A stretch of DNA of 64,000 nucleotides, from NCBI RefSeq assembly GCF_030384885.1, contig NZ_CP128613.1; one strand, written 5' to 3'. Both the position numbers and the translations under genes were made by a program. Shown here one piece after another: positions 10,660 to 53,928 of the stretch. Within the stretch, counting starts at the first letter, position 1. Each line of letters opens with the position of its first letter. Source of the DNA: Escherichia coli (GTDB lineage Bacteria; Pseudomonadota; Gammaproteobacteria; Enterobacterales; Enterobacteriaceae). A model generated the notes under the pieces. That model did not search any database. It was not told the origin of the DNA and saw only the letters and a program-made list of their open reading frames with translations.

Positions 10660-10697
10660 AACATCAACGGCTCCTGAATCAGGAGCCGTCTTATTTA
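10660..10697. terminator. Bidirectional intrinsic terminator between ytfL and ytfK
   Basis: Perfect palindrome ggctcctga-a-tcaggagcc followed by a T-rich run on both strands. Confidence 0.7.
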
Positions 10698-11900: not shown

Positions 11901-12824
11901 TCAATAACCCTTATTCGCGTTTAACGGTTTTACCTCTTTTTTAAACGCTTCAATGGTAGATTTATATTTCTTGTGAATCTTTTCTTCGGTATAATTACCG
12001 TTTGCGGCCAGATTTGCACTTACAATCGCTTCCACTTGCTCGGTTATTTCCACTTGTTGGTAACCTGCATCAACCAGAAAATTATAAATAAGAGAGTAAT
12101 CTTCACCCTGCAAAAAAATATAAGAGCCAGTTCGAAGTTCCTCATCCCCTCCATAGATTTTAAGAGCAAAGCCCAAAGATTCTATGACCATGGCATAATT
12201 TCTATTATTTATTTCCTCGCAAAAATACCATCCTTCACATTCTTTAATGCTACCTTCTGGCCCTTCAAGTTCAAATTTACCCCGTTTTAATTTGCTTACT
12301 ACATTCTCCAAATAAGCAGAATTGTAAGATAAGTTACCCGCCGCCTTCCGAAAATAACCGTTAATCCTTTCAGGTATGTCAGACTGTTTTTTCTGCAAAA
12401 TATCATAGGTATACAATCTTCTATTTTGTGCTAGTGGAAATTCACGGTTTTTAAAGTCTATAAATGAGTTATACTCATTTATTGTTATAGGGATTTCTTC
12501 GTATTCAAATCCAGTGCCTCGCAATGTCATTGTATATTCGGCACCGTTATCTTTAAGGCGGAAGCTGATAAGAAAATTATCCATGGAGTGAACGGTTTCA
12601 TCTTTTAATGAAAGCACCTGATAACTATTTTTATCGATCTGTGTTGCTCTAAGAAAGAACTCCCTTAAAATTAACAAACTATCATAATTCGAAATCCAAT
12701 CCCTTTTCTTAAATGCATGCTGAATATTATTAAAGAAATTATTTGAATGTATTTTTGTATGCGATGACTTTACAAATAACTCCACTGCACCAAAAAAATT
12801 ATTGTGTCTGATCTTGGGTAACAT
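11901..12824 (-). CDS. ytfI: Uncharacterized protein YtfI, AT-rich
   Basis: 307-aa ORF, markedly AT-rich versus flanks; no motif I recognise; position between ytfJ and cysQ as in K-12. Confidence 0.8.
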   Translation of the reverse strand: MLPKIRHNNFFGAVELFVKSSHTKIHSNNFFNNIQHAFKKRDWISNYDSLLILREFFLRATQIDKNSYQVLSLKDETVHSMDNFLISFRLKDNGAEYTMTLRGTGFEYEEIPITINEYNSFIDFKNREFPLAQNRRLYTYDILQKKQSDIPERINGYFRKAAGNLSYNSAYLENVVSKLKRGKFELEGPEGSIKECEGWYFCEEINNRNYAMVIESLGFALKIYGGDEELRTGSYIFLQGEDYSLIYNFLVDAGYQQVEITEQVEAIVSANLAANGNYTEEKIHKKYKSTIEAFKKEVKPLNANKGY

Positions 12825-17471: not shown

Positions 17472-18437
17472 ATGATTAGCGGCGTGCTGTACGCCCTGTT
17501 AGCAGGGTTGATGTGGGGGCTTATATTTGTCGGGCCGTTGATCGTGCCGGAATACCCGGCGATGTTGCAGTCGATGGGGCGTTATCTGGCGTTAGGGTTA
17601 ATTGCGCTGCCCATTGCCTGGCTGGGACGCGTGCGTCTGCGTCAGTTGGCGCGTCGCGACTGGCTTACCGCCTTGATGCTCACCATGATGGGCAACCTCA
17701 TCTATTACTTCTGCCTTGCCAGTGCCATTCAACGTACTGGCGCGCCTGTTTCCACGATGATTATCGGCACCCTGCCGGTGGTGATTCCTGTCTTCGCCAA
17801 TCTGCTTTATAGCCAGCGTGACGGTAAACTCGCGTGGGGGAAACTCGCCCCGGCGCTGGTTTGTATTGGCATCGGCCTGGCATGTGTAAATATTGCTGAG
17901 TTAGACCACGGACTCCCCGATTTTGACTGGGCACGTTATGCCTCAGGCATCGTACTGGCGCTAGTCTCCGTGGTCTGCTGGGCGTGGTATGCCTTGCGCA
18001 ACGCCCGTTGGCTGCGGGAAAACCCAGACAAACATCCGATGATGTGGGCGACGGCGCAGGCGCTGGTCACGCTGCCGGTTTCGCTCATCGGTTATCTTGT
18101 CGCCTGTTACTGGCTGAATACGCAAACGCCGGACTTCTCCCTACCTTTTGGCCCCCGTCCGCTGGTGTTTATTAGTCTGATGATTGCGATAGCCGTGCTT
18201 TGCTCATGGGTTGGCGCACTCTGCTGGAACGTCGCCAGCCAGCGATTACCGACGGTTATCCTCGGACCGTTGATTGTTTTCGAAACGCTGGCAGGTTTGC
18301 TGTACACCTTTTTACTCCGCCAGCAAATGCCGCCGCTAATGACGCTGAGCGGTATCGCGCTGTTAGTGATTGGCGTGGTCATTGCGGTCAGAGCCAAACC
18401 GGAAAAGCCTTTAACTGAACCTGTCTCAGAAAGTTGA
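17472..18437 (+). CDS. ytfF: Inner-membrane transporter YtfF (DMT/EamA superfamily)
   Basis: Start set at MISGVLYALLAG, 321 aa; about 10 predicted TM helices. Confidence 0.88.
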   Translation: MISGVLYALLAGLMWGLIFVGPLIVPEYPAMLQSMGRYLALGLIALPIAWLGRVRLRQLARRDWLTALMLTMMGNLIYYFCLASAIQRTGAPVSTMIIGTLPVVIPVFANLLYSQRDGKLAWGKLAPALVCIGIGLACVNIAELDHGLPDFDWARYASGIVLALVSVVCWAWYALRNARWLRENPDKHPMMWATAQALVTLPVSLIGYLVACYWLNTQTPDFSLPFGPRPLVFISLMIAIAVLCSWVGALCWNVASQRLPTVILGPLIVFETLAGLLYTFLLRQQMPPLMTLSGIALLVIGVVIAVRAKPEKPLTEPVSES

Positions 18438-18495
18438 CACGCTGGCAGTGAGTTAAATAAGCCTCTGCTACGTAAGGGTTATAGCATTTGCCTTA

Positions 18496-18518
18496 AAGAT
18501 GCATTTAAAATACATCTT
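18496..18518 (+). promoter_or_regulatory. NsrR operator upstream of ytfE
   Basis: Direct read aagatgcatttaaaatacatctt, an 11-1-11 perfect inverted repeat matching the NsrR box; about 27 nt before the ytfE ATG. Confidence 0.85.
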
Positions 18519-18544
18519 ATATTATTAAGAATGAGGTATCAGCT

Positions 18545-19207
18545 ATGGCTTATCGCGACCAACCTTTAGGTGAACTGGCGCTCTCTATTCCTCGCGCTTC
18601 GGCTCTGTTTCGTAAATATGATATGGATTACTGCTGCGGCGGTAAGCAAACGCTGGCGCGTGCGGCGGCACGTAAAGAACTGGATGTTGACGTCATTGAA
18701 GCCGAACTGGCAAAGCTTGCTGAACAACCGATTGAGAAAGACTGGCGTAGCGCCCCACTGGCGGAAATCATCGACCATATCATCGTGCGCTACCACGATC
18801 GTCACCGTGAACAACTGCCGGAACTGATTCTGCAAGCGACTAAAGTCGAACGCGTTCACGCCGACAAACCGAGCGTGCCAAAAGGGCTGACAAAATACCT
18901 GACTATGCTGCATGAAGAGCTTTCCAGCCACATGATGAAAGAAGAGCAGATCCTCTTCCCGATGATCAAACAAGGCATGGGTAGCCAGGCGATGGGGCCA
19001 ATTAGCGTAATGGAAAGCGAGCACGATGAAGCGGGCGAACTGCTGGAAGTGATTAAACACACCACCAATAACGTCACACCGCCGCCGGAAGCCTGCACCA
19101 CCTGGAAAGCGATGTATAACGGTATTAATGAATTGATTGATGACCTGATGGATCACATCAGCCTGGAAAACAATGTACTGTTCCCGCGCGCGCTGGCGGG
19201 TGAGTGA
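18545..19207 (+). CDS. ytfE: Iron-sulfur cluster repair di-iron protein YtfE (RIC)
   Basis: 220-aa ORF matching E. coli YtfE from memory; preceded by an NsrR box. Confidence 0.95.
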
Positions 19208-21810: not shown

Positions 21811-22449
21811 ATGCCCGGGCGCTTTGAACTAAAACCAACCCTGGAGAAAGTCTGGCACGCGCCGGACAATTTTCGCTTCATGGACCCGCTACCGCCGATG
21901 CATCGTCGGGGGATCATTATTGCCGCTATTGTATTGGTGGTCGGATTTCTACTCCCGTCTGATGATACGCCAAACGCGCCGGTGGTGACGCGTGAAGCAC
22001 AGTTAGATATTCAGTCGCAATCACAACCGCCGACAGAAGAACAGCTGCGGGCGCAATTAGTCACACCACAAAATGATCCTGATCAGGTGGCTCCGGTCGC
22101 TCCAGAACCGATACAGGAAGGCCAACCGGAAGAGCAGCCGCAAACCTCGCAAGTGCAACCTTTCCAGCCAGATAGCGGAATTGACAATCAATGGCGCTCT
22201 TACCGTGTCGAACCCGGTAAAACGATGGCGCAGCTGTTCCGCGACCACGGACTGCCCGCTACCGATGTCTATGCAATGGCGCAGGTAGAAGGCGCGGGTA
22301 AGCCGCTGAGTAATTTGCAAAACGGGCAGATGGTGAAAATCCGCCAGAATGCCAGCGGCGTGGTGACGGGCTTAACCATTGATACGGGGAATAATCAACA
22401 GGTCCTGTTTACCCGCCAGCCGGATGGGAGTTTTATTCGTGCGCGGTAG
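21811..22449 (+). CDS. ytfB: Cell-division protein YtfB (OapA-domain)
   Basis: Start set at [13 protein letters not shown] (212 aa); TM segment then Pro/Gln-rich linker; 3' end overlaps the convergent TetR gene. Confidence 0.88.
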
Positions 22450-23080
22450 ATGAAGGGTCAACCAAAAGCCAGCTAAGGATTGTCTCTTTGATGACCTTAC
22501 GCCTGGCTTCCAGTGCCTGCGGTGAAACCATACTGATGTGATAAACCAGGCCAAGCGTATGCTGGTTGATCAAATAATATCCTCCAAGAGCAGCAATATT
22601 AATATTCACCTGCAACGGGTCGATATCTGGCTTAAAAATATTGCGCCGTTTGCCTTCAGCTAATAATGACTCCATTAACTGTAAGTGTGCGTGGTTAATT
22701 TCTAAAAGGCGCTGTGATTTTGCATAATGCACCCCTTTACTCTGGTTTTCACTATGCACAATTTTTAAAAACCAGGGGTTAGCAATGTAATAATCCCAGG
22801 TGAAATCGATAATTTTCTCAATGGCTTTTTGTGGCGGAAGACCTGAGAAATCAAGGGATTTTTCTTTTTGCCGAATATCATTCCAGGTATATTCCAGCAC
22901 TTCGATAAATAAATTTTCTTTATTACCAAAGTGATGATAAACCGTCTGTTTACTGCACTCCGCGGCCTTGACGATATTATCGACTCTGGCCCCTTCGTAA
23001 CCATATTCGGCAAATTCATTAACCGCACATAACAACAGCTTTTCCTTCAGGCTTTGTACGTTGCTGGTATCAAGATACAT
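22433..23080 (-). CDS. TetR/AcrR-family transcriptional regulator
   Basis: N-terminal HTH ([28 protein letters not shown]) typical of TetR; ATG at 23080 preferred over the GTG at 23140 used by the ORF track; divergent from the downstream operon. Confidence 0.8.
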
Positions 23081-23202
23081 TCCGCTTCCCCACGTCTTCT
23101 TCGTGATGACTATCTTAACCCGATTTGTTAGAAGCTCCACTAAAATGGCTAAAAACTCGCAATTTCATCGGGTTATCAAATGCTCTGTGATCATTATCGC
23201 AT

Positions 23203-23224
23203 ATCAACCAACTAGATGGTTGAT
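23203..23224. promoter_or_regulatory. Candidate TetR operator (inverted repeat) in divergent promoter region
   Basis: atcaacca-actaga-tggttgat, 8-bp perfect arms, between the TetR gene and the SDR gene; inference. Confidence 0.35.
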
Positions 23225-23291
23225 CTTTCTTGCCACACATTGCAAGCTAATCGTCACTTAAGGAAATAATATTCAAAAAGAGGGTTATTGT

Positions 23292-24083
23292 ATGAAGTCA
23301 ACACGTCCTGTTGCTGTCATCACTGGAGCCGCACGTGGTATTGGAAAGGGCTGTGCACTGGAACTTGCGCGTGGCGGATTTAATCTGCTGATTAATGATC
23401 GTCCGGATGCCGACAGCGTAGAAAAATTACATGCCACACAACAAGAATGTCTGGCGGAAGGCGTGGAAGTGATTTGCTTCCCTGCTGATGTTGGCGATCT
23501 CTCCCTTCATGAAGAGATGCTCGACGCGGCGCAAAACCAGTGGGGACGTCTGGACTGTCTACTCAACAACGCAGGCATTTCAGTGAAAAAACGCGGTGAC
23601 CTCCTCGACCTCGAACCAGACAGCTTCGACCAAAACATTGCCATTAACACCCGTGCGCCGTTCTTCCTTGCTCAGGCATTCAGTAAGCGATTACTGGCAC
23701 AGCCGAAACCGGAAGCAGAACTGCCGCACCGCTCGATTATTTTTGTCAGTTCCATAAACGCCATCATGCTGGCGATGAATCGCGGCGAATATACCATTGC
23801 CAAAACTGCCGTCTCCGCCGCAGCTCGTCTGTTTGCCGCTCGCCTTTGCAATGAACAAATTGGCGTTTATGAAGTGCGCCCTGGCCTAATCAAAACCGAT
23901 ATGACCATTCCGGCAACGGCTTATTACGACGAACTGATTGCTAAGGGGTTAGTGCCGTGGGGACGTTGGGGTTATCCGGCTGATATTGCCTCAACGGTCC
24001 GCGCGATGGCGGAAGGCAAACTGATTTACACCTGTGGTCAGGCGGTCGCCATCGACGGCGGCTTAAGTATGCCGCGCTTCTGA
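23292..24083 (+). CDS. Short-chain dehydrogenase/reductase (SDR)
   Basis: TGAARGIG cofactor motif, NNAG, and Ser...Y-x3-K catalytic motif (YTIAK) read directly. Confidence 0.85.
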   Translation: MKSTRPVAVITGAARGIGKGCALELARGGFNLLINDRPDADSVEKLHATQQECLAEGVEVICFPADVGDLSLHEEMLDAAQNQWGRLDCLLNNAGISVKKRGDLLDLEPDSFDQNIAINTRAPFFLAQAFSKRLLAQPKPEAELPHRSIIFVSSINAIMLAMNRGEYTIAKTAVSAAARLFAARLCNEQIGVYEVRPGLIKTDMTIPATAYYDELIAKGLVPWGRWGYPADIASTVRAMAEGKLIYTCGQAVAIDGGLSMPRF

Positions 24084-24092
24084 GGCTGAATC

Positions 24093-24935
24093 ATGAGAGA
24101 TCTGTTACAACGCCCGGATTTATTCAGTATCAATACTGCGACACTGGGCTATAAAACGCCGCTACCTGCCATTATTGATGCCTGCGCCGCACGCGGTATT
24201 GGCGCGATTGCCCCCTGGCGCAGGGAGTTACAGGGTGAAGATCTCCAGCAAATCGCCCGCCAGCTTGCTGCCAGTAACATGAGCGTTTCCGGTTTGTGTC
24301 GTAGCACCTATTACACCGCGCCGACGCTGACGGAACGCAAACTGGCGATTGATGATAACCGCCGGGCGCTGGACGACGCCGCTGTACTGAACGCCGCCTG
24401 TTATATGCAGGTGGTTGGCGGTCTGCCAATGGGAACAAAAGATCTGTACGAAGCGCGGGAACAAGTGAAACAAGGGATTCGCCAGTTGCTGCCACATTCG
24501 AAAGATGTCGGCGTGCCAATTGCGCTGGAGCCGCTGCACCCGATGACAGCTGCCGATCGCTCTTGCCTGTGCACGTTACGTCAGGCGCTGGACTGGTGTG
24601 ATGAACTCGATCCCGATGGGGAGTTTGGCCTCGGCGTGGCGGTGGATGTTTATCACGTCTGGTGGGACCCGGATCTCGCCAGTCAGATCCTGCGTGCCGG
24701 AAAACGCATCCTCGCGTTTCATGTTTCCGACTGGCTGGTGCCAACCACCGATTTAGTCAATGACCGGGGAATGCCGGGAGATGGCGTAATCAATATTCCG
24801 TCTATTCGTCGCCAGGTAGAAAATGCCGGATTTAACGGTGCTGTGGAACTGGAAATTTTCTCACCGTACTGGTGGCAGCAAGATATTAACAGCACGTTGG
24901 ATATTAGCGTCGATCGCATCGCGCATTATTGCTAA
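24093..24935 (+). CDS. Sugar-phosphate isomerase/epimerase-like (xylose-isomerase-type TIM barrel) protein
   Basis: 280-aa ORF; family assignment by overall resemblance only (…AFHVSDW…), no database check. Confidence 0.55.
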   Translation: MRDLLQRPDLFSINTATLGYKTPLPAIIDACAARGIGAIAPWRRELQGEDLQQIARQLAASNMSVSGLCRSTYYTAPTLTERKLAIDDNRRALDDAAVLNAACYMQVVGGLPMGTKDLYEAREQVKQGIRQLLPHSKDVGVPIALEPLHPMTAADRSCLCTLRQALDWCDELDPDGEFGLGVAVDVYHVWWDPDLASQILRAGKRILAFHVSDWLVPTTDLVNDRGMPGDGVINIPSIRRQVENAGFNGAVELEIFSPYWWQQDINSTLDISVDRIAHYC

Positions 24936-24938
24936 GGA

Positions 24939-25721
24939 ATGATCATGAGTGACCAACCCGTTCTGTTCAGCAGAGCGGCGGCTTCCTGCCGCCTGACATT
25001 GAACCGTGAAGATAAATGTCATGCTATTAATGAAGAAATGATCGAATCTCTCGACCATTATTTAAATGAAATTGAAAACGACACCACATTACGATTAGTC
25101 GAATTAACGGCAACCGGCGATAAATTCTTTTGTGCAGGCGGCGATATTAAATCGTGGTCAGCCTATTCGCCATTAGATATGGGCAGAAAATGGATTAAAC
25201 GCGGCAATGACGTTTTTAATCGCCTGCGCAATTTACCTCAATTAACGGTTGCGAATCTCAACGGTCATACCATCGGCGGTGGTATTGAACTTGCCTTGTG
25301 CTGCGATATTCGTATTGCTCGCCCCGGCGCGAAATTCTCTAATCCGGAAGTAATGCTCGGCATGGTGCCTGGCTGGATGGGCATTGAACGCGTGCTTAAT
25401 CAGGTCGGTCCGGTGGTCGGTCGCCAGATGCTGATGCTGGGTAAACGCCTGACGGCGCAGGAAGCTCAGGCAGCGAATTTAATTGATGAAGTGGTAGAAA
25501 AAGAACAGGTGGAAAGCTGGATGGCGAATCAGTTAGCGCAGCTGGAAAAATGCGGTCCGGTGGCGCTCGCACATATCAAGCAACTGATTCTGGCTCTAGA
25601 AAATAAACATGCTGATTACCCGCACCAGTTACTGGCTGGATTAATGTCCGCCACTCAGGATTGCCAGCAGGCGACGCGCGCATTTGCCGAAAAAAGTAGC
25701 GTGAGCTTCCAAAATCAATAA
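24939..25721 (+). CDS. Enoyl-CoA hydratase/isomerase (crotonase family)
   Basis: Crotonase signatures FFCAGGDIKSW and GHTIGGGIELALCCDIRIA. Confidence 0.85.
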   Translation: MIMSDQPVLFSRAAASCRLTLNREDKCHAINEEMIESLDHYLNEIENDTTLRLVELTATGDKFFCAGGDIKSWSAYSPLDMGRKWIKRGNDVFNRLRNLPQLTVANLNGHTIGGGIELALCCDIRIARPGAKFSNPEVMLGMVPGWMGIERVLNQVGPVVGRQMLMLGKRLTAQEAQAANLIDEVVEKEQVESWMANQLAQLEKCGPVALAHIKQLILALENKHADYPHQLLAGLMSATQDCQQATRAFAEKSSVSFQNQ

Positions 25722-25730
25722 GGAAATTGT

Positions 25731-27272
25731 ATGCGTAAGATAACAACCGCCGAGACACTGGCGGCGCAAATTCAGGACGGTGCAACCATTGCCATTAGCG
25801 GTAATGGCGGCGGCATGGTGGAAGCGGACCATATTCTGGCTGCTATTGAAGCGCGTTTCCTGCAAACCGGACACCCGCGCGATCTGACATTAATCCACTC
25901 GCTGGGCATTGGCGATCGCGACTGCAAAGGCACTAACCGCTTCGCTCATGCAGATATGCTCAAACGCATCATTGCCGGACATTTTACCTGGTCGCCCAAG
26001 ATGCAGGATCTGGTGAAAAACAATGCTATTGAAGCCTACTGCTTCCCTGGTGGCGTAATTCAGGCACTGCTGCGGGAGATCGGTGCCGGACGTCCAGGGC
26101 TTTTTACCCACGTTGGACTGGGATCGTTTGTTGATCCGCGCAACGGCGGCGGTAAGTCGAACGCCAGCACCACTGAGGATCTGGTAGAACTGATTGAAAT
26201 CGACGGTGAAACCAAACTTCGTTATCGCCCTTTCAAAGTGGATTACGCGATTTTGCGTGGCACTTATGCCGATCCTCGAGGCAACGTCAGCCTTGAAGAA
26301 GAGGCGATTGATATGGATAGCTATTCCATGGCGCTGGCAGCACACAACAGCGGTGGCAAAGTGTTCGTACAGGTGCGCGATGTGCTGGAAGCTGGTGCCA
26401 TTGAACCACGCCGGGTCAAATTACCGGGCATTCTGGTTGATGGCATCGTTGAACACCGCGAACAACCGCAAACATATCTTGGCGGTTACGACCTGACCAT
26501 CAGCGGTCAGCACCGCCGTTTAAGTTCTAACGACGCTATTGAACTGGTTACTCATCCGGTGCGCCGCCTGATTGCCCGTCGGGCAGCACGCGAACTGGTG
26601 GCTGGCGCTTCAACCAACTTTGGCTTTGGCATTCCCGGCGGCATTCCTGGGGTTGCACTGCGCGAAGGCGTGCCTTATCAAAGTTTATGGCTGAGCGTCG
26701 AGCAAGGCGTGCATAACGGTATGATGCTGGATGATGCTCTGTTCGGCTGCGCCCGTAACGCCGATGCCATTATTCCATCACTCGATCAATTCGAATTCTA
26801 CAGTGGCGGAGGGATCGATATCACCTTCCTCGGCATGGGAGAGATGGATCAGCATGGTAACGTCAACGTCTCCCATCTCAATGGCAATCTCATTGGCCCC
26901 GGCGGATTTCTCGAAATTGCGCAAAACGCCCGTAAAGTGGTGTTCTGTGGCACGTTCGACGCCAAAGGTAGCAAGATTGATGTAACACCAGATGGCTTGC
27001 ATATCGCCCAGTCAGGTCAAATCCCTAAACTGGTTACCCAAGTGGAAAAAATCACTTTTAGCGCCGCCTACGCACAGCAAAGCGGTCAGGAAGTGTTGTA
27101 TATCACTGAACGTGCAGTATTCCAATTAACAGCAGAAGGCGTTGAATTAATTGAAATCGCACCAGGTGTGGAGATTGAGCGCGACATTCTGCCATATATG
27201 GCTTTCCGTCCAATTATCAATCAGCCACGCCTGATGGAAAGTAGCCTGTTTACGCCGATGGAGGATGCATGA
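25731..27272 (+). CDS. Family-I CoA-transferase (YdiF/acetate CoA-transferase-like, fused A/B subunits)
   Basis: 513-aa ORF; long stretches resemble E. coli YdiF as I recall it (…VGLGSFVDPRNGGGK…); 3' end overlaps the next gene (ATGA). Confidence 0.8.
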   Translation: MRKITTAETLAAQIQDGATIAISGNGGGMVEADHILAAIEARFLQTGHPRDLTLIHSLGIGDRDCKGTNRFAHADMLKRIIAGHFTWSPKMQDLVKNNAIEAYCFPGGVIQALLREIGAGRPGLFTHVGLGSFVDPRNGGGKSNASTTEDLVELIEIDGETKLRYRPFKVDYAILRGTYADPRGNVSLEEEAIDMDSYSMALAAHNSGGKVFVQVRDVLEAGAIEPRRVKLPGILVDGIVEHREQPQTYLGGYDLTISGQHRRLSSNDAIELVTHPVRRLIARRAARELVAGASTNFGFGIPGGIPGVALREGVPYQSLWLSVEQGVHNGMMLDDALFGCARNADAIIPSLDQFEFYSGGGIDITFLGMGEMDQHGNVNVSHLNGNLIGPGGFLEIAQNARKVVFCGTFDAKGSKIDVTPDGLHIAQSGQIPKLVTQVEKITFSAAYAQQSGQEVLYITERAVFQLTAEGVELIEIAPGVEIERDILPYMAFRPIINQPRLMESSLFTPMEDA

Positions 27273-29350
27273 GTCAGCTTGATGACACCCTCCTTGATGC
27301 GCTGACGCATGTCACTTTCCCGAAGGGTTTTGCACAGGCAGAACCCGCATGGGTTGTCACGGTAGACGGTGTTGATTACCCACTCTGGCAAACAGATGCC
27401 CTGGTAGTCGGCAGTGGTGCAGCCGGGCTGCGTGCAGCTGTGGAACTTAAACGCCGCCAGCAAAATGTGTTGATCGCCACTGCCGGGTTATATATGGGGA
27501 CGTCGGCATGTTCTGGTTCCGATAAACAGACACTGTTTACCGCCGCTACCGCGGGCAATGGCGACAACTTCACCAAACTGGCAGAGGCACTGGCGAGCGG
27601 TGGAGCGATGGATCACGACACCGCTTATGTCGAAGCGGTAGGTTCTCTGCACACTCTTGGCGGGTTGCAATATCTTGGTCTGGAATTACCGGAAGATCGC
27701 TATGGCGCGATTCTTCGTTATCAAACCGACCATGACGAAGCCGGGCGTGCAACCTCGTGTGGGCCGCGTACCTCAAGGTTAATGGTGAAAGTGCTGTTGG
27801 AAGAAGTGCAGCGCCTCGCCATTCCAGTGTTGACCAGTGCAACAGTGATTAAACTGCTGCATCAGCGTGACGAAAACGGCGAAGACTGCGTGGCGGGGGC
27901 AATCCTCGCGACCGGTCATCGCGCCCATAACCCATGGGGGCTGGCAATTGTGACTGCGCCCAATGTGGTGCTGGCAACAGGAGGGCCTGGCGAGCTTTAT
28001 CGAGACAGTGTGTACCCACATAAATGCTTCGGCTCGCTGGGGCTGGCGCTGGAAGAAGGTCTGACGCTAACCAATCTGACCGAAAGCCAGTTTGGTATTG
28101 GCACGCCACGCAACACCTTTCCGTGGAATTTGTCCGGCACCTATGTACAGGTGATCCCATATATCTATTCCGTAGATGCTGAGGGCAACGAGTATAACTT
28201 CCTCACGGATTACTATCGAACTACCCAGGAACTGGCTTCAAACATCTTCCGTAAAGGCTATCAGTGGCCGTTTCACGCCACACGAGTGATGGATTTTGGC
28301 TCCAGCTTGTTAGATATGGCAGTAGCGCAAGAGCAGCAATCAGGGCGTCAGGTATTTATGGATTTCAATCGCAATCCTGAACCTGTGCCGGGTGACATGC
28401 CGTTCTCATTAGATCGACTGGACGACGACGTTCGCGCGTATCTGGAAAATAACGACGCTCTGGCACCATCGCCCATCGAACGACTGCAACGAATGAATCC
28501 GCTGTCTATCTCGCTGTATAAGATGCACGGTTACGATCTCACCACGCAGCCATTGCAGTTTGCCATGAATAATCAGCATATGAATGGCGGCATTGAAGTG
28601 GATATCTGGGGGCAAACCTCCCTGCCCGGCTGTTTCGCCGTGGGGGAAGTTGCTGGCACACACGGCGTTACCCGACCTGGCGGTGCGGCGCTGAATGCCG
28701 GACAGGTATTTGCCGTGCGACTGGCACGTTTTATTGGTTGCACACAAAAGCGGTCCGTTGAGGATGATATCGCGCAGCTGGTAGCCTCACCTCTGCATAC
28801 AATCAGAGAAGTTATCGCTCAGGCACTGGCAAACGAGAACGGAATGACGCTGGCAACGGTGAAAGAAAAAATCCAGGCGCGAATGTCTGATTACGCGGGA
28901 TTTATTTGCCATGCTGATAAAGTTCGTCACGCCGCCCGTGACGCCATGCTGTTAAATGAATTTGCGCAGCAACATGGTCTAACTATCAACCACGCCGGTG
29001 AAATTGCCGAGCTATTTATGTGGCGGCATATGGCATTAACATCCGCTGCGGTGTTAAGCCAGCTATCACATTATATTGATGCTGGCGGTGGTAGTCGTGG
29101 AGCACGGATGATTATTGATCCACAAGGAGAATATCTTCCACAAACTCGTCGCGGCGCAATCGAAGATTGGCGTTTTCGCTCTGAACAAGCTGAAGATAAA
29201 AATCACAGACTAACTCTCTCCTTTTCACAAGGTTTATTTATTAATGAAATTAAGTTCTTGAGAAACTTACCGCATATTAAAGGTATTTACTTTGAGAAGA
29301 ATTGGCCTGATTTTCTTAACGGAACAATTTATCAGACACGGCATGAATAA
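27269..29350 (+). CDS. FAD-dependent oxidoreductase (fumarate reductase/succinate dehydrogenase/L-aspartate oxidase-like flavoprotein)
   Basis: Dinucleotide-binding motif VVGSGAAGLRAA, HMNGG and GEVAGTHGVTRPGGAALN motifs of the FAD_binding_2 family; 693 aa with an AT-rich C-terminal tail. Confidence 0.75.
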   Translation: MSQLDDTLLDALTHVTFPKGFAQAEPAWVVTVDGVDYPLWQTDALVVGSGAAGLRAAVELKRRQQNVLIATAGLYMGTSACSGSDKQTLFTAATAGNGDNFTKLAEALASGGAMDHDTAYVEAVGSLHTLGGLQYLGLELPEDRYGAILRYQTDHDEAGRATSCGPRTSRLMVKVLLEEVQRLAIPVLTSATVIKLLHQRDENGEDCVAGAILATGHRAHNPWGLAIVTAPNVVLATGGPGELYRDSVYPHKCFGSLGLALEEGLTLTNLTESQFGIGTPRNTFPWNLSGTYVQVIPYIYSVDAEGNEYNFLTDYYRTTQELASNIFRKGYQWPFHATRVMDFGSSLLDMAVAQEQQSGRQVFMDFNRNPEPVPGDMPFSLDRLDDDVRAYLENNDALAPSPIERLQRMNPLSISLYKMHGYDLTTQPLQFAMNNQHMNGGIEVDIWGQTSLPGCFAVGEVAGTHGVTRPGGAALNAGQVFAVRLARFIGCTQKRSVEDDIAQLVASPLHTIREVIAQALANENGMTLATVKEKIQARMSDYAGFICHADKVRHAARDAMLLNEFAQQHGLTINHAGEIAELFMWRHMALTSAAVLSQLSHYIDAGGGSRGARMIIDPQGEYLPQTRRGAIEDWRFRSEQAEDKNHRLTLSFSQGLFINEIKFLRNLPHIKGIYFEKNWPDFLNGTIYQTRHE

Positions 29351-29370
29351 TATTGCAAAGGTTAATCACT

Positions 29371-29847
29371 ATGCGAAATATAATCAGATCTATTAATTCA
29401 TTGCTTTCCACGTTGAACATTACCATTTTGGCAATTATTGTGATGTGCGTTACATGGCAAGTAGTAGCACGATTTATCTTTAAAAGCCCCAGCATTTTTA
29501 CAGATGAACTTAGTCGTTTACTATTTATTTGTCTTGGACTTTTTGGTGGTGCTTATACTGCCGGACAAAACCGACATCTGGCCATTGATCTTCTGCCAAT
29601 GATGCTAAAAGGAAAATCCCGACGTTATTTATTCTTATGTATTCAGGCCATTGTTATTCTTTTTGCCTCTATCATTATGGTTTATGGTGGCGGGTTATTA
29701 ACACTGGACACATTTGATTCAGGGCAAACTTCTCCGGCTTTAGGCTGGCAGATGGGATATATTTACATGAGCATTCCAATAAGTGGCATCCTTATTATTA
29801 TATACACCATAGATACAGTTTTAACCGAACTTAAACAACCACTCTAA
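29371..29847 (+). CDS. TRAP transporter small permease (DctQ-like)
   Basis: About 158 aa with 4 predicted TM helices; ATG at 29371 with upstream aaagg preferred over the TTG at 29353; directly upstream of DctM. Confidence 0.75.
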   Translation: MRNIIRSINSLLSTLNITILAIIVMCVTWQVVARFIFKSPSIFTDELSRLLFICLGLFGGAYTAGQNRHLAIDLLPMMLKGKSRRYLFLCIQAIVILFASIIMVYGGGLLTLDTFDSGQTSPALGWQMGYIYMSIPISGILIIIYTIDTVLTELKQPL

Positions 29848-29869
29848 AATAAGTAGGGATGGAGAAAAC

Positions 29870-31171
29870 ATGGATTACTGGTTACCGATCATTGTGTTAT
29901 TTGGTTCTTTCTTTTTTATGTTGGCATTAGGTGTTCCTATTGTCTATGCTATTGGTTTATCAACACTGGCATCAATTACTACACAACTCGATTTCAACTC
30001 AGCATTGAGTGTGGTTTCACAAAAGTTAGCCTCCGGGTTAGATAGTTTTACGTTGTTGGCAATCCCATTTTTTATCTTGTCTGGCAACATTATGAATCAT
30101 GGAGGAATAGCGCGACGATTAATCAACTTTGCCCGTATTCTCGGCGGTCGTCTGCCAGGCTCACTTGCTCACTGTAATATTCTTGCCAATATGCTGTTCG
30201 GGGCAATTTCTGGTTCAGCTGTTGCTTCGGCGGCTGCGATGGGCGGCGTCATGCATCCACAGCAGGTTAAAGAGGGTTACGACCCGGCATTCAGTACCGC
30301 TGTTAACGTTGCCTCTGCACCGACAGGTTTACTTATTCCACCCAGTAATACGTTAATTGTCTTTTCACTGGTCAGTGGTGGTACTTCTATTGCCGCACTG
30401 TTCCTGGCAGGATATGTCCCGGGAATTTTATTGGGCCTGGCGCTGATGACTGTGGCTGGTATTATCGCGGTACGCCGGGGTTATCCAAAACCAGAACGTC
30501 CGACTTTGCGCCAGGCTGGAGTGGCAATATGGATGGCGATCCCCAGTATTTTCCTGATTGTATTAATTATGGGTGGTGTACTAAGCGGTATTTTTACCCC
30601 GACAGAAGCATCTGCAATTGCGGTAATTTATACCCTTTTCCTTGCACTGGTTCTTTATCGTGAAATATCAGTTAAAGATTTACCTAAGATATTTCTGGAG
30701 TCCGTCATTACCACTGCAATTGTCTTGTTGTTAATTGGTTCTTCAATGGGAATGTCATGGGCAATGTCAAACGCTGACGTTCCCTTCCTGATTCTCGATT
30801 TGCTTAACACTATTTCTGATAATCCAATAATAATCCTGCTTATTATCAATATTATTCTGTTGATTATCGGCACATTTATGGATATGACACCGGCAGTACT
30901 GATTTTTACGCCGATATTTTTACCCGTTGTCACCGAACTGGGCATGGACCCGATTCACTTTGGTATTGTCATGGTACTGAACATGTGTATCGGTATTTGT
31001 ACTCCGCCTGTAGGCAGTGTGTTATTTGTCGGTTGTAGTGTATCTAAATTACCGATTAATAAAATTATCAAACCTATGCTGCCCTTCTATGCCGTGATGG
31101 TATTGGTGCTGGCTATGGTGACCTATATTCCGCAAATCAGTATGGCATTGCCAAGAGCACTGGGCTACTGA
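29870..31171 (+). CDS. TRAP transporter large permease (DctM-like)
   Basis: 433-aa polytopic membrane protein; size and hydrophobicity pattern typical of DctM. Confidence 0.85.
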   Translation: MDYWLPIIVLFGSFFFMLALGVPIVYAIGLSTLASITTQLDFNSALSVVSQKLASGLDSFTLLAIPFFILSGNIMNHGGIARRLINFARILGGRLPGSLAHCNILANMLFGAISGSAVASAAAMGGVMHPQQVKEGYDPAFSTAVNVASAPTGLLIPPSNTLIVFSLVSGGTSIAALFLAGYVPGILLGLALMTVAGIIAVRRGYPKPERPTLRQAGVAIWMAIPSIFLIVLIMGGVLSGIFTPTEASAIAVIYTLFLALVLYREISVKDLPKIFLESVITTAIVLLLIGSSMGMSWAMSNADVPFLILDLLNTISDNPIIILLIINIILLIIGTFMDMTPAVLIFTPIFLPVVTELGMDPIHFGIVMVLNMCIGICTPPVGSVLFVGCSVSKLPINKIIKPMLPFYAVMVLVLAMVTYIPQISMALPRALGY

Positions 31172-31223
31172 TGCGCATTCACTGGCGGCTCCTGCCGCCA
31201 TATTTATTAGAAAAGGAACATCT

Positions 31224-32195
31224 ATGAAAATAAAAGTATCCGCTGGCATTATCGGTGCTGTTCTTATGTTATCTGCAGGCCAGTCCTGGGCAGTAACATT
31301 AAAACTTAGCCATAATCAGGATAAATCTCATCCTGTTCATAAAGCGATGGAGTTCTTTGCGAAAAAGAGCAAAGAGTACTCTAACGGTGATATTACTATT
31401 CGTATTTATCCAAATGGAACATTGGGTACTCAACGAGAAACAATGGAGCTGATTCGTTCTGGTGCTATTCCGCTGGTAAAAACCAATGCGGCGGAGATGG
31501 AAGCCTTCGAGAGTTCGTATAAAATATTTAGCCTGCCTTATTTGTTCCGCGATCGTGATCATTATTATCAGGTCATGCAAGGCGATATCGGAAGGAAAAT
31601 CCTCGACTCAACGAAAAACAAAGGTTATTTCGGTCTGACTTTCTATGATGGAGGCGCCCGCAGCTTCTACGGCAATAAACCGGTGCTGAAACCAGACGAT
31701 CTCAAAGGAATGAAAGTTCGTGTCCAGCCAAGCCCAGGGGCAGTTGAGATGATCAAAGTCATGGGAGGTAACCCAACACCGCTGGATTATGGAGAGTTGT
31801 ACACAGCATTGCAGCAAGGTGTGGTTGATATGGCGGAAAACAGTGTGATGGCGCTGACCACCATGCGCCACGGTGAAGTAGCAAAATCCTTCAGCCTTGA
31901 CGAACACACTATGGTTCCTGATGTGGTTCTAATGAGCAATGCTTCGTTTGATAAGCTTAGCCCGGAAAATCAGGCAGCTATATTAAAAGCAGCTAAAGAA
32001 TCAATGAGCTACATGAAAGACTTGTGGAGCGAGGAAGAGAAAAAAGAATTCGCTAAACTGGATCAAATGGGCGTGAAAGTCTACAAGGTTGATAAAGCAC
32101 CGTTTATCGAGAAAGTGCAGCCGATGTACGCAGCCTTTGCTAAGGAAAACCCTGCTCTCGCCCCAATGCTAACTGATATTCAGGCGACTAAGTAA
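31224..32195 (+). CDS. TRAP transporter substrate-binding protein (DctP-like), periplasmic
   Basis: 323 aa, signal peptide MKIKVSAGIIGAVLMLSAGQSWA; DctP-size soluble protein adjacent to DctQM. Confidence 0.8.
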   Translation: MKIKVSAGIIGAVLMLSAGQSWAVTLKLSHNQDKSHPVHKAMEFFAKKSKEYSNGDITIRIYPNGTLGTQRETMELIRSGAIPLVKTNAAEMEAFESSYKIFSLPYLFRDRDHYYQVMQGDIGRKILDSTKNKGYFGLTFYDGGARSFYGNKPVLKPDDLKGMKVRVQPSPGAVEMIKVMGGNPTPLDYGELYTALQQGVVDMAENSVMALTTMRHGEVAKSFSLDEHTMVPDVVLMSNASFDKLSPENQAAILKAAKESMSYMKDLWSEEEKKEFAKLDQMGVKVYKVDKAPFIEKVQPMYAAFAKENPALAPMLTDIQATK

Positions 32196-32252: not shown

Positions 32253-32288
32253 AAAAGCAAAACGCCGACCAATGGTCGGCGTTTTTAC
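32253..32288. terminator. Bidirectional intrinsic terminator between TRAP operon and rplI
   Basis: aaaagcaaa-acgccgacc-aatg-gtcggcgt-ttttacg: hairpin flanked by A-run and T-run. Confidence 0.75.
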
Positions 32289-49780: not shown

Positions 49781-49856
49781 ATATTATTCCATAGTGATTA
49801 AGTTGAAATATTAATAATATAAATATTTGTAGCACGTAATTATCTTACCAGCTCCA

Positions 49857-53298: not shown

Positions 53299-53724
53299 TC
53301 ACTCCACCAGCAATAATTTATAAAGCGGTTGATTCTCTTCAACCAAATCGGCAAGCGTGTAGTTATCCAGTTCCGTAAGAAAACTTTGCACGGCCTTAGA
53401 AAGTGCCTGTTTCAACCGACAGGCAGGTGTAATGTGGCAAAACTCACTGCTGCAATTCACCAGCGATAAAGGTTCCAGCTCGCGCACCACATCACCAATA
53501 CGTATCGCACTCGCCGGTTTCCCCAGGCGAATGCCGCCATTTTTTCCACGAACAGCAGTCACGTAGCCGGCACGACTAAGTTGATTGATTATTTTGACCA
53601 TATGATTACGGGAGACGCCGTAGACGTCAGTCACTTCAGAAATACTGGTCATCCGCCCTTCTGGCAATGACGCCATGTAGATCAGCGCACGTAATCCGTA
53701 ATCAGTGAAACTCGTTAACTGCAC
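53299..53724 (-). CDS. nsrR: Nitric-oxide-sensing repressor NsrR (Rrf2 family)
   Basis: 141-aa ORF with Rrf2 HTH and three Cys ligands. Confidence 0.95.
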
Positions 53725-53928
53725 ATCAACCTCAAAAGGGAAATCGGGAAAAAATACATTTATATTGATGATAAACCAGCCACAAGCTGTGTCGCTAATT
53801 TATTTCAGTTTGGGGAAGGAAAAAAGCGAGGATTTAACACTGTGTCGGAAAGCGTAATGGCTTAACCGACACAGCAATGTATCACACTGTTAGCCCGGCA
53901 GGCAAAATATCTGCCAGGCGTACCAGAA

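Follow-up and report, generated by a model that had tools for sequence, protein, structure and literature searches.

What is the inverted repeat that lies between ytfF and ytfE in Escherichia coli, which protein reads it, and how might binding there control ytfE? We addressed this question in a stretch of 64,000 nt of the E. coli chromosome (henceforth the window), which shows 7/64,000 mismatches to NZ_CP027579.1 (strain 2013C-4282, coordinates 2977999-3041998) and for which the gene annotation was taken from the RefSeq version of that near-identical record. The repeat sits at 18496-18518 in a ytfF-ytfE gap of 107 bp. The upstream neighbor ytfF encodes a DMT-family transporter (17472-18437, plus strand, RefSeq annotation of NZ_CP027579.1) and reaches its stop codon 58 nt ahead of the repeat, while the ATG of ytfE (18545-19207, plus strand) follows 26 nt after its end. 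A Shine-Dalgarno sequence, GAGG, can be read at 18533-18536 on the plus strand and is kept in the cross-genus alignment. The ytfE gene, recognized as an open reading frame, by the NF008221 profile and in the RefSeq annotation, encodes the di-iron iron-sulfur cluster repair protein (RIC): its product scores 417 bits against NF008221 (cut-off 254), identifying the target as an NO/nitrosative-stress gene, and contains the Pfam domains ScdA_N and Hemerythrin.

An earlier note on this DNA had read the 23-mer AAGATGCATTTAAAATACATCTT as a perfect 11-1-11 palindrome that matches the consensus of the repressor NsrR, and the letters and coordinates that it gave are those we find at 18496-18518. The repeat belongs to neither strand in particular and is composed of AAGATGCATTT-A-AAATACATCTT, in which 10/11 arm pairs are complementary. 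The description as a perfect palindrome is therefore wrong by one pair, as C18502 stands opposite A18512. When the right arm is written as its reverse complement, AAGATGTATTT, it differs from the left arm AAGATGCATTT by a T in place of C, the sole asymmetry, and the symmetry is confined to the 23 bp, with none further out. Importantly, the asymmetric position coincides with the degenerate Y/R of the NsrR consensus gATGyAT-N5-ATrCATc (PMC1274295), a position that carries C 30 times and T 17 times in 50 published half-sites. Since the mismatch falls on this degenerate position, each half-site is still a full consensus match, and both operator halves together have 0 of 22 mismatches to AAGATGYATTTNAAATRCATCTT.

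The NsrR match was confirmed by a scan across the window with a symmetrized position weight matrix (PWM) built from 25 distinct 11-1-11 NsrR sites other than ytfE (Table 4 of PMC5320621), the ytfE site itself being left out. The ytfE box scored 30.07 bits, out of a possible maximum of 30.97, and was the single clear match, as the next-best 23-mer in the 64 kb reached 12.06 bits. In 200 random 64-kb sequences the best scores averaged 14.0 and the highest was 21.9, so that the ytfE box exceeds the top of these sequences by 8 bits while the second-best match of the window lies below random expectation. Likewise, 100 shuffles contained no match to the 23-mer within 3 mismatches. Scored as separate half-sites, the left arm (18496-18506, plus strand) ranked first in the window with 15.33 of 15.4, and the right arm (18508-18518, minus strand) second with 14.58. 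Because a matrix that lacks ytfE finds the box by an 18-bit margin over the rest of the 64 kb, the suggestion that this site can serve as a positive control for motif scans is sound. The ytfE box is thus a calibration point rather than a discovery; among natural NsrR operators of E. coli it is the strongest.

Symmetry as such does not single out the box. Counting the ytfE box, five 11-1-11 repeats with no more than one mismatch occur in the window, against an expectation of about 0.5-0.7 per random 64 kb. Two of them are truly perfect, GC-rich and intergenic: ACGGCTCCTGA-A-TCAGGAGCCGT at 10667-10689 between paeA and ytfK, and AACGCCGACCA-A-TGGTCGGCGTT at 32261-32283 between the gene for a TRAP substrate-binding protein and rplI. 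Both are probably stems of bidirectional terminators. The other two have one mismatch each: ATAAATGAGTT-A-TACTCATTTAT at 12460-12482 is within a hypothetical gene (11901-12824), and AAATATTAATA-A-TATAAATATTT at 49806-49828 is between yjfI and rlmB. Symmetry is therefore not the criterion, given that the operator allele of ytfE is imperfect whereas two unrelated palindromes in the same window are perfect.

The allele of the window is shared with the laboratory strain. In K-12 MG1655 the identical 23-mer AAGATGCATTTAAAATACATCTT is flanked by ytfF and ytfE, with the same 26-nt gap to the ATG. Two differences between K-12 and the window are close by and both are outside the operator: at 18521, 3 nt downstream of the box, K-12 has C (TATCTT, in TTATCTTATT) and the window A (TATATT, in TTATATTATT), and at 18483 K-12 has T and the window A. 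Strain CFT073 has the same locus and architecture as the window, but its operator carries G at position 17 (AAATGCATCTT), where the window has A, and is a truly perfect palindrome. We counted both alleles in 5426 complete E. coli genomes by exact 28-word megablast with 30-mer queries. The A allele of the window and K-12 was present in 4167/5426 genomes (76.8%) and the G allele in 959/5426 (17.7%), the genomes with neither counted allele having flank variants or no such region. The "textbook" perfect palindrome is thus the minority allele in E. coli, found in ~18% of complete genomes. Exact matches to the longer 63-mer at 18476-18538 occurred in only 32/5416 records. The ytfF-ytfE region was also seen on three E. 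coli records labeled as plasmids, probably because these replicons were mis-assigned or carry large inserts from the chromosome.

Published work bears directly on this site, in keeping with the description of the operator in the earlier note as known biology. An NsrR site upstream of dnrN/ytfE was predicted in PMC1274295, and NsrR control of ytfE in K-12 has been shown experimentally (Bodenmiller and Spiro, 2006; Partridge et al., 2009; both as related in PMC5320621 and PMC8593673). Detection of the K-12 site by ChIP-chip is likewise known to us through its citation in PMC5320621. In CFT073, the ytfE site lies under a ChIP-seq peak, ytfE is induced 69.6-fold under nitrate, and by PatSer score the site ranks first among the 11-1-11 sites in the genome (PMC5320621, Table 4). 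Because the window encodes equivalogs of YtfE and NsrR, its 23-mer is identical to that of K-12, the orthologous site of CFT073 is bound in ChIP-seq, and the PWM has a single match, we are highly confident that 18496-18518 is the NsrR operator of ytfE, and the earlier reading is to that extent upheld.

The gene for the repressor is in the window as well, as had been noted. The nsrR gene (53299-53724, minus strand, GTG start, assigned by NF008240 and annotation) encodes a protein of 141 aa that matches the NF008240 equivalog profile with 292.8 bits (cut-off 182) and the Pfam family Rrf2, and whose nearest solved structure is that of S. coelicolor NsrR (5n07/7b0c). Cys91, Cys96, and Cys102, the ligands of the iron-sulfur cluster, are all present in its translation. 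With 34.8 kb and about 35 unrelated genes in many unrelated operons between nsrR and the ytfE box, their co-occurrence in the window is a coincidental linkage that is not operon-like and has no evident mechanistic meaning. Upstream of nsrR itself, a single strong NsrR half-site, AAAATACATTT, is located at 53751-53761 on the plus strand, 27 nt from the GTG start. It scores 13.1 of 15.4, the third best in the window behind the two arms of the ytfE box, and on the nsrR strand it coincides in part with a TATAAA-like stretch; as a full 23-bp site the position scores only 4.95. This lone half-site may give weak autoregulation of nsrR in E. coli. The interval between the box and nsrR also contains a 9.8-kb gene cluster (22433-32195) located between ytfB and rplI, with genes for a TetR regulator, a 3-ketoacyl-ACP reductase, a sugar-phosphate isomerase, an enoyl-CoA hydratase, a CoA transferase, an FAD oxidoreductase, and a TRAP transporter. 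This variable and unusually divergent cluster is present at 80% coverage or more in only 1447/5426 E. coli genomes, most of which share just 90-95% identity with the window there.

We then scanned one genome per species with the motif AAGATGYATTTNNNATRCATCTT, which matched at least 120 loci. Among the matches listed, 101/120 species have the start of an NO-stress gene or of an NsrR homologue no more than 250 nt from the box, a figure that shows association and not how often ytfE occurs without a box, as the loci were chosen by the motif itself. The genes near the box at these listed matches encode NsrR homologues (36 loci), truncated globins (26 + 5 = 31 loci), YtfE (27 loci), flavohaemoglobin (Hmp, 27 loci), NIT-domain chemoreceptors (14 loci), TehB (8 loci), Hcp (2 loci), and hemerythrin (1 locus). 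This association of motif and NO genes independently reproduces the one on which the NsrR motif was first defined (PMC1274295). In 27 enterobacterial species among the matches listed, from the genera Escherichia, Citrobacter, Enterobacter, Kluyvera, Lelliottia, Pseudescherichia, Superficieibacter, Shimwellia, and Mangrovibacter, the box is 24-27 nt before the ATG of ytfE while the flanks diverge, these sequences being related and the conservation counts therefore not independent.

How the operator would act depends on where the promoter is. A scan of 18300-18700 for consensus sigma-70 promoters gave no match, and the best -35 element for any candidate -10 matches at 3/6 positions. The poor -35 and the empty promoter scan fit an activator-dependent promoter. 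Two candidate -10 hexamers on the plus strand, each with 5/6 identity to TATAAT, are found at the box: TAAAAT (18506-18511), which is inside the operator and predicts a 27-nt leader, and TATATT (18518-18523), which begins on the operator's final base and would give a 15-nt leader. Among the matches listed, the 27 enterobacterial ytfE promoters have TAAAAT, TAATAT, TATAAT, or TAACAT at the first position, so that TAnnAT inside the box is kept in 27/27, while the final T of TATATT is lost in 5/28 orthologous promoters. The center base of the box at these matches is A in 26/27 boxes oriented toward ytfE, whereas boxes of the other gene classes have mainly T or a mixture. Based on the retention of TAnnAT, the A-biased center base, and the position of about -44.5 that an upstream block would then take, we infer that TAAAAT inside the box is the -10 element, a choice modestly favored over TATATT.

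The upstream block in question is a conserved element at 18466-18481 (plus strand) with a weak resemblance to the 7-2-7 sites of NarL/NarP (TGCTACG-TA-AGGGTTA, 4 mismatches). Its right half, AAGGGTTA, falls within the conserved block AAAGGG(G/T)TAT, and its center is fixed at 20-22 nt upstream of the box in 27/28 enterobacterial ytfE promoters among the matches listed. Across these promoters the fit to NarL/NarP leaves 2-4 mismatches, compared with 4.7 on average in shuffled sequence. A position of about -44.5 is used by NarL/NarP 7-2-7 sites, and the conserved block may represent a degenerate NarL/NarP site at about -44.5. NarP sites at dnrN (ytfE) have been predicted in enterobacteria (Rodionov, 2005, PMC1274295). 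A reading of the same block as an IscR type-2-like element (ATAACCCTT...) is also better than shuffled controls. In many genera other than Escherichia, a CRP-like sequence, TGTGA-N6-TCACA with 0-1 mismatch, is located 44-47 nt upstream of the box, examples being found in Citrobacter, Enterobacter, and Kluyvera (loci L010, L021, L071, L049, L052, and others of our set). In the three Escherichia sequences examined the best match has 3 mismatches; E. coli lacks the sequence, and its DNA at the matching position is the 3' end of ytfF, which is coding up to 18437.

Taken with these promoter elements, the box suggests the following mechanism, which takes from the literature that NsrR binds in vivo, that NO or nitrate relieves repression, and that the cluster senses NO. 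A dimer of NsrR, a [4Fe-4S] repressor of the Rrf2 family encoded 34.8 kb away, would bind 18496-18518 and repress ytfE, each monomer reading one 11-bp half-site, AAGATGCATTT or AAGATGTATTT, on opposite strands. Since the box overlaps both candidate -10 hexamers, covering TAAAAT fully and the first base of TATATT, repression most likely occurs by promoter occlusion, with bound NsrR predicted to keep RNA polymerase off the core promoter of ytfE. Once NO nitrosylates the cluster, the affinity of NsrR for DNA would fall, and the promoter thus freed would permit synthesis of the Fe-S repair protein YtfE. With A or G at operator position 17, A or C at 18521 in the neighboring -10-like hexamer, and a -10 element that may be inside the operator, one can also imagine that natural promoter variation sets different NO thresholds for ytfE induction among E. 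coli lineages, though we consider this rather unlikely.

Could NsrR bind the box but act differently, as a roadblock to transcription from a promoter further upstream, for example around 18480-18487? The block AAAGGG(G/T)TAT(A/T)(G/T)C at 18472-18485 is kept across genera, and the TGTGA-N6-TCACA sequence outside Escherichia could serve a class II activator if transcription began near the box's left edge, which would put the sequence ~41-42 nt ahead of the start. However, the hexamer within this block (TATAGC, TATATC, or TATTCC) does not have the final T that is nearly invariant in -10 elements, the CRP-like sequence is absent in E. coli, where ytfF coding extends into the corresponding DNA, and the TAnnAT inside the box is retained in all 27 enterobacterial promoters among the matches listed. 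We thus regard a roadblock as improbable and promoter occlusion as the preferred reading. That the box works mainly at the RNA level, as a transcribed hairpin that terminates ytfF or forms a structure in the 5'-UTR of ytfE, instead of as protein-binding DNA, is far less probable still. An inverted repeat 58 nt past the ytfF stop and followed by an AT-rich stretch invites such a view, as do the GC-rich, terminator-stem-like palindromes at 10667 and 32261, but the minimum free energy of the ytfE repeat is just -4 kcal/mol (z-score -0.85), 41/200 shuffles fold equally well or better, the stem has only 3 G-C pairs with no U-run after it, and a terminator scan of 18300-18700 was empty. Moreover, it is base identities that are kept across species, beyond mere pairing, and the motif recurs before unrelated NO genes. 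We rejected the hairpin or terminator reading on the grounds of the weak fold, the lack of a terminator match in the scanned interval, and the missing U-run.

An assignment of the box to another regulator, with NsrR incidental, is about as improbable as the hairpin. IscR is a sensible candidate, as it is a paralogue of NsrR (the window's NsrR gives weak matches to IscR models and has IscR structures among its relatives) and YtfE acts on Fe-S clusters, so that IscR control would make biological sense; another Rrf2 protein, Fur, FNR, or CRP might also be envisaged. We scored the interval 18438-18544 against the familiar consensus strings of IscR, Fur, FNR, and CRP. The best match to IscR type 1 had 10/25 mismatches, compared with 0/22 for NsrR, that to IscR type 2 had 7/24 and was at 18457-18482, not at the box, that to Fur had 9/19, and those to FNR and CRP had 4/10 each. 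In distant taxa, too, the motif goes with nsrR homologues (36 loci among the matches listed) and not with iscR. As all four were poor matches, we rejected IscR, Fur, FNR, and CRP as readers of the box. Finally, the box might be a chance AT-rich intergenic palindrome with no regulatory role, in a window that has five 11-1-11 palindromes with at most one mismatch where ~0.5-0.7 are expected at random. We rejected this view, whose probability we consider negligible, given the absence of any match within 3 mismatches in the 100 shuffles, the 8-bit margin of the PWM score over the best of the 200 random 64-kb sequences, the conservation of box sequence and spacing in 27 species among the matches listed, and the published ChIP-seq peak over the orthologous site (PMC5320621). 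Binding by NsrR, rather than RNA folding, another regulator, or chance, is thus the reading that we retain.

How does this operator compare with known systems? Operators of IscR, of type 1 and type 2, are likewise bound by a dimeric winged-helix Rrf2 protein on an AT-rich, ~25-bp pseudo-palindrome that overlaps a promoter, as is predicted for the ytfE box, but the sequence of the latter does not match either IscR motif (10/25 and 7/24 mismatches to the consensus). The box stands before nsrR itself in Legionella, Bacillales, Betaproteobacteria, and others (36 loci among the matches listed), implying from its position that nsrR would be autoregulated there, whereas the region upstream of nsrR in the window has a single half-site only, unlike the full box of those bacteria. 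Close counterparts are the NsrR operators of E. coli hmp, hcp, yeaR, ygbA, and tehA and the nsrR-hmp or nsrR-globin operators of other bacteria, which share with the ytfE box both the 11-1-11 motif and the type of target, NO-stress genes (PMC1274295; PMC5320621). Within this group, the hmp, hcp, yeaR, ygbA, and tehA sites of E. coli are much more degenerate, scoring 12-26 bits compared with 30 for ytfE.
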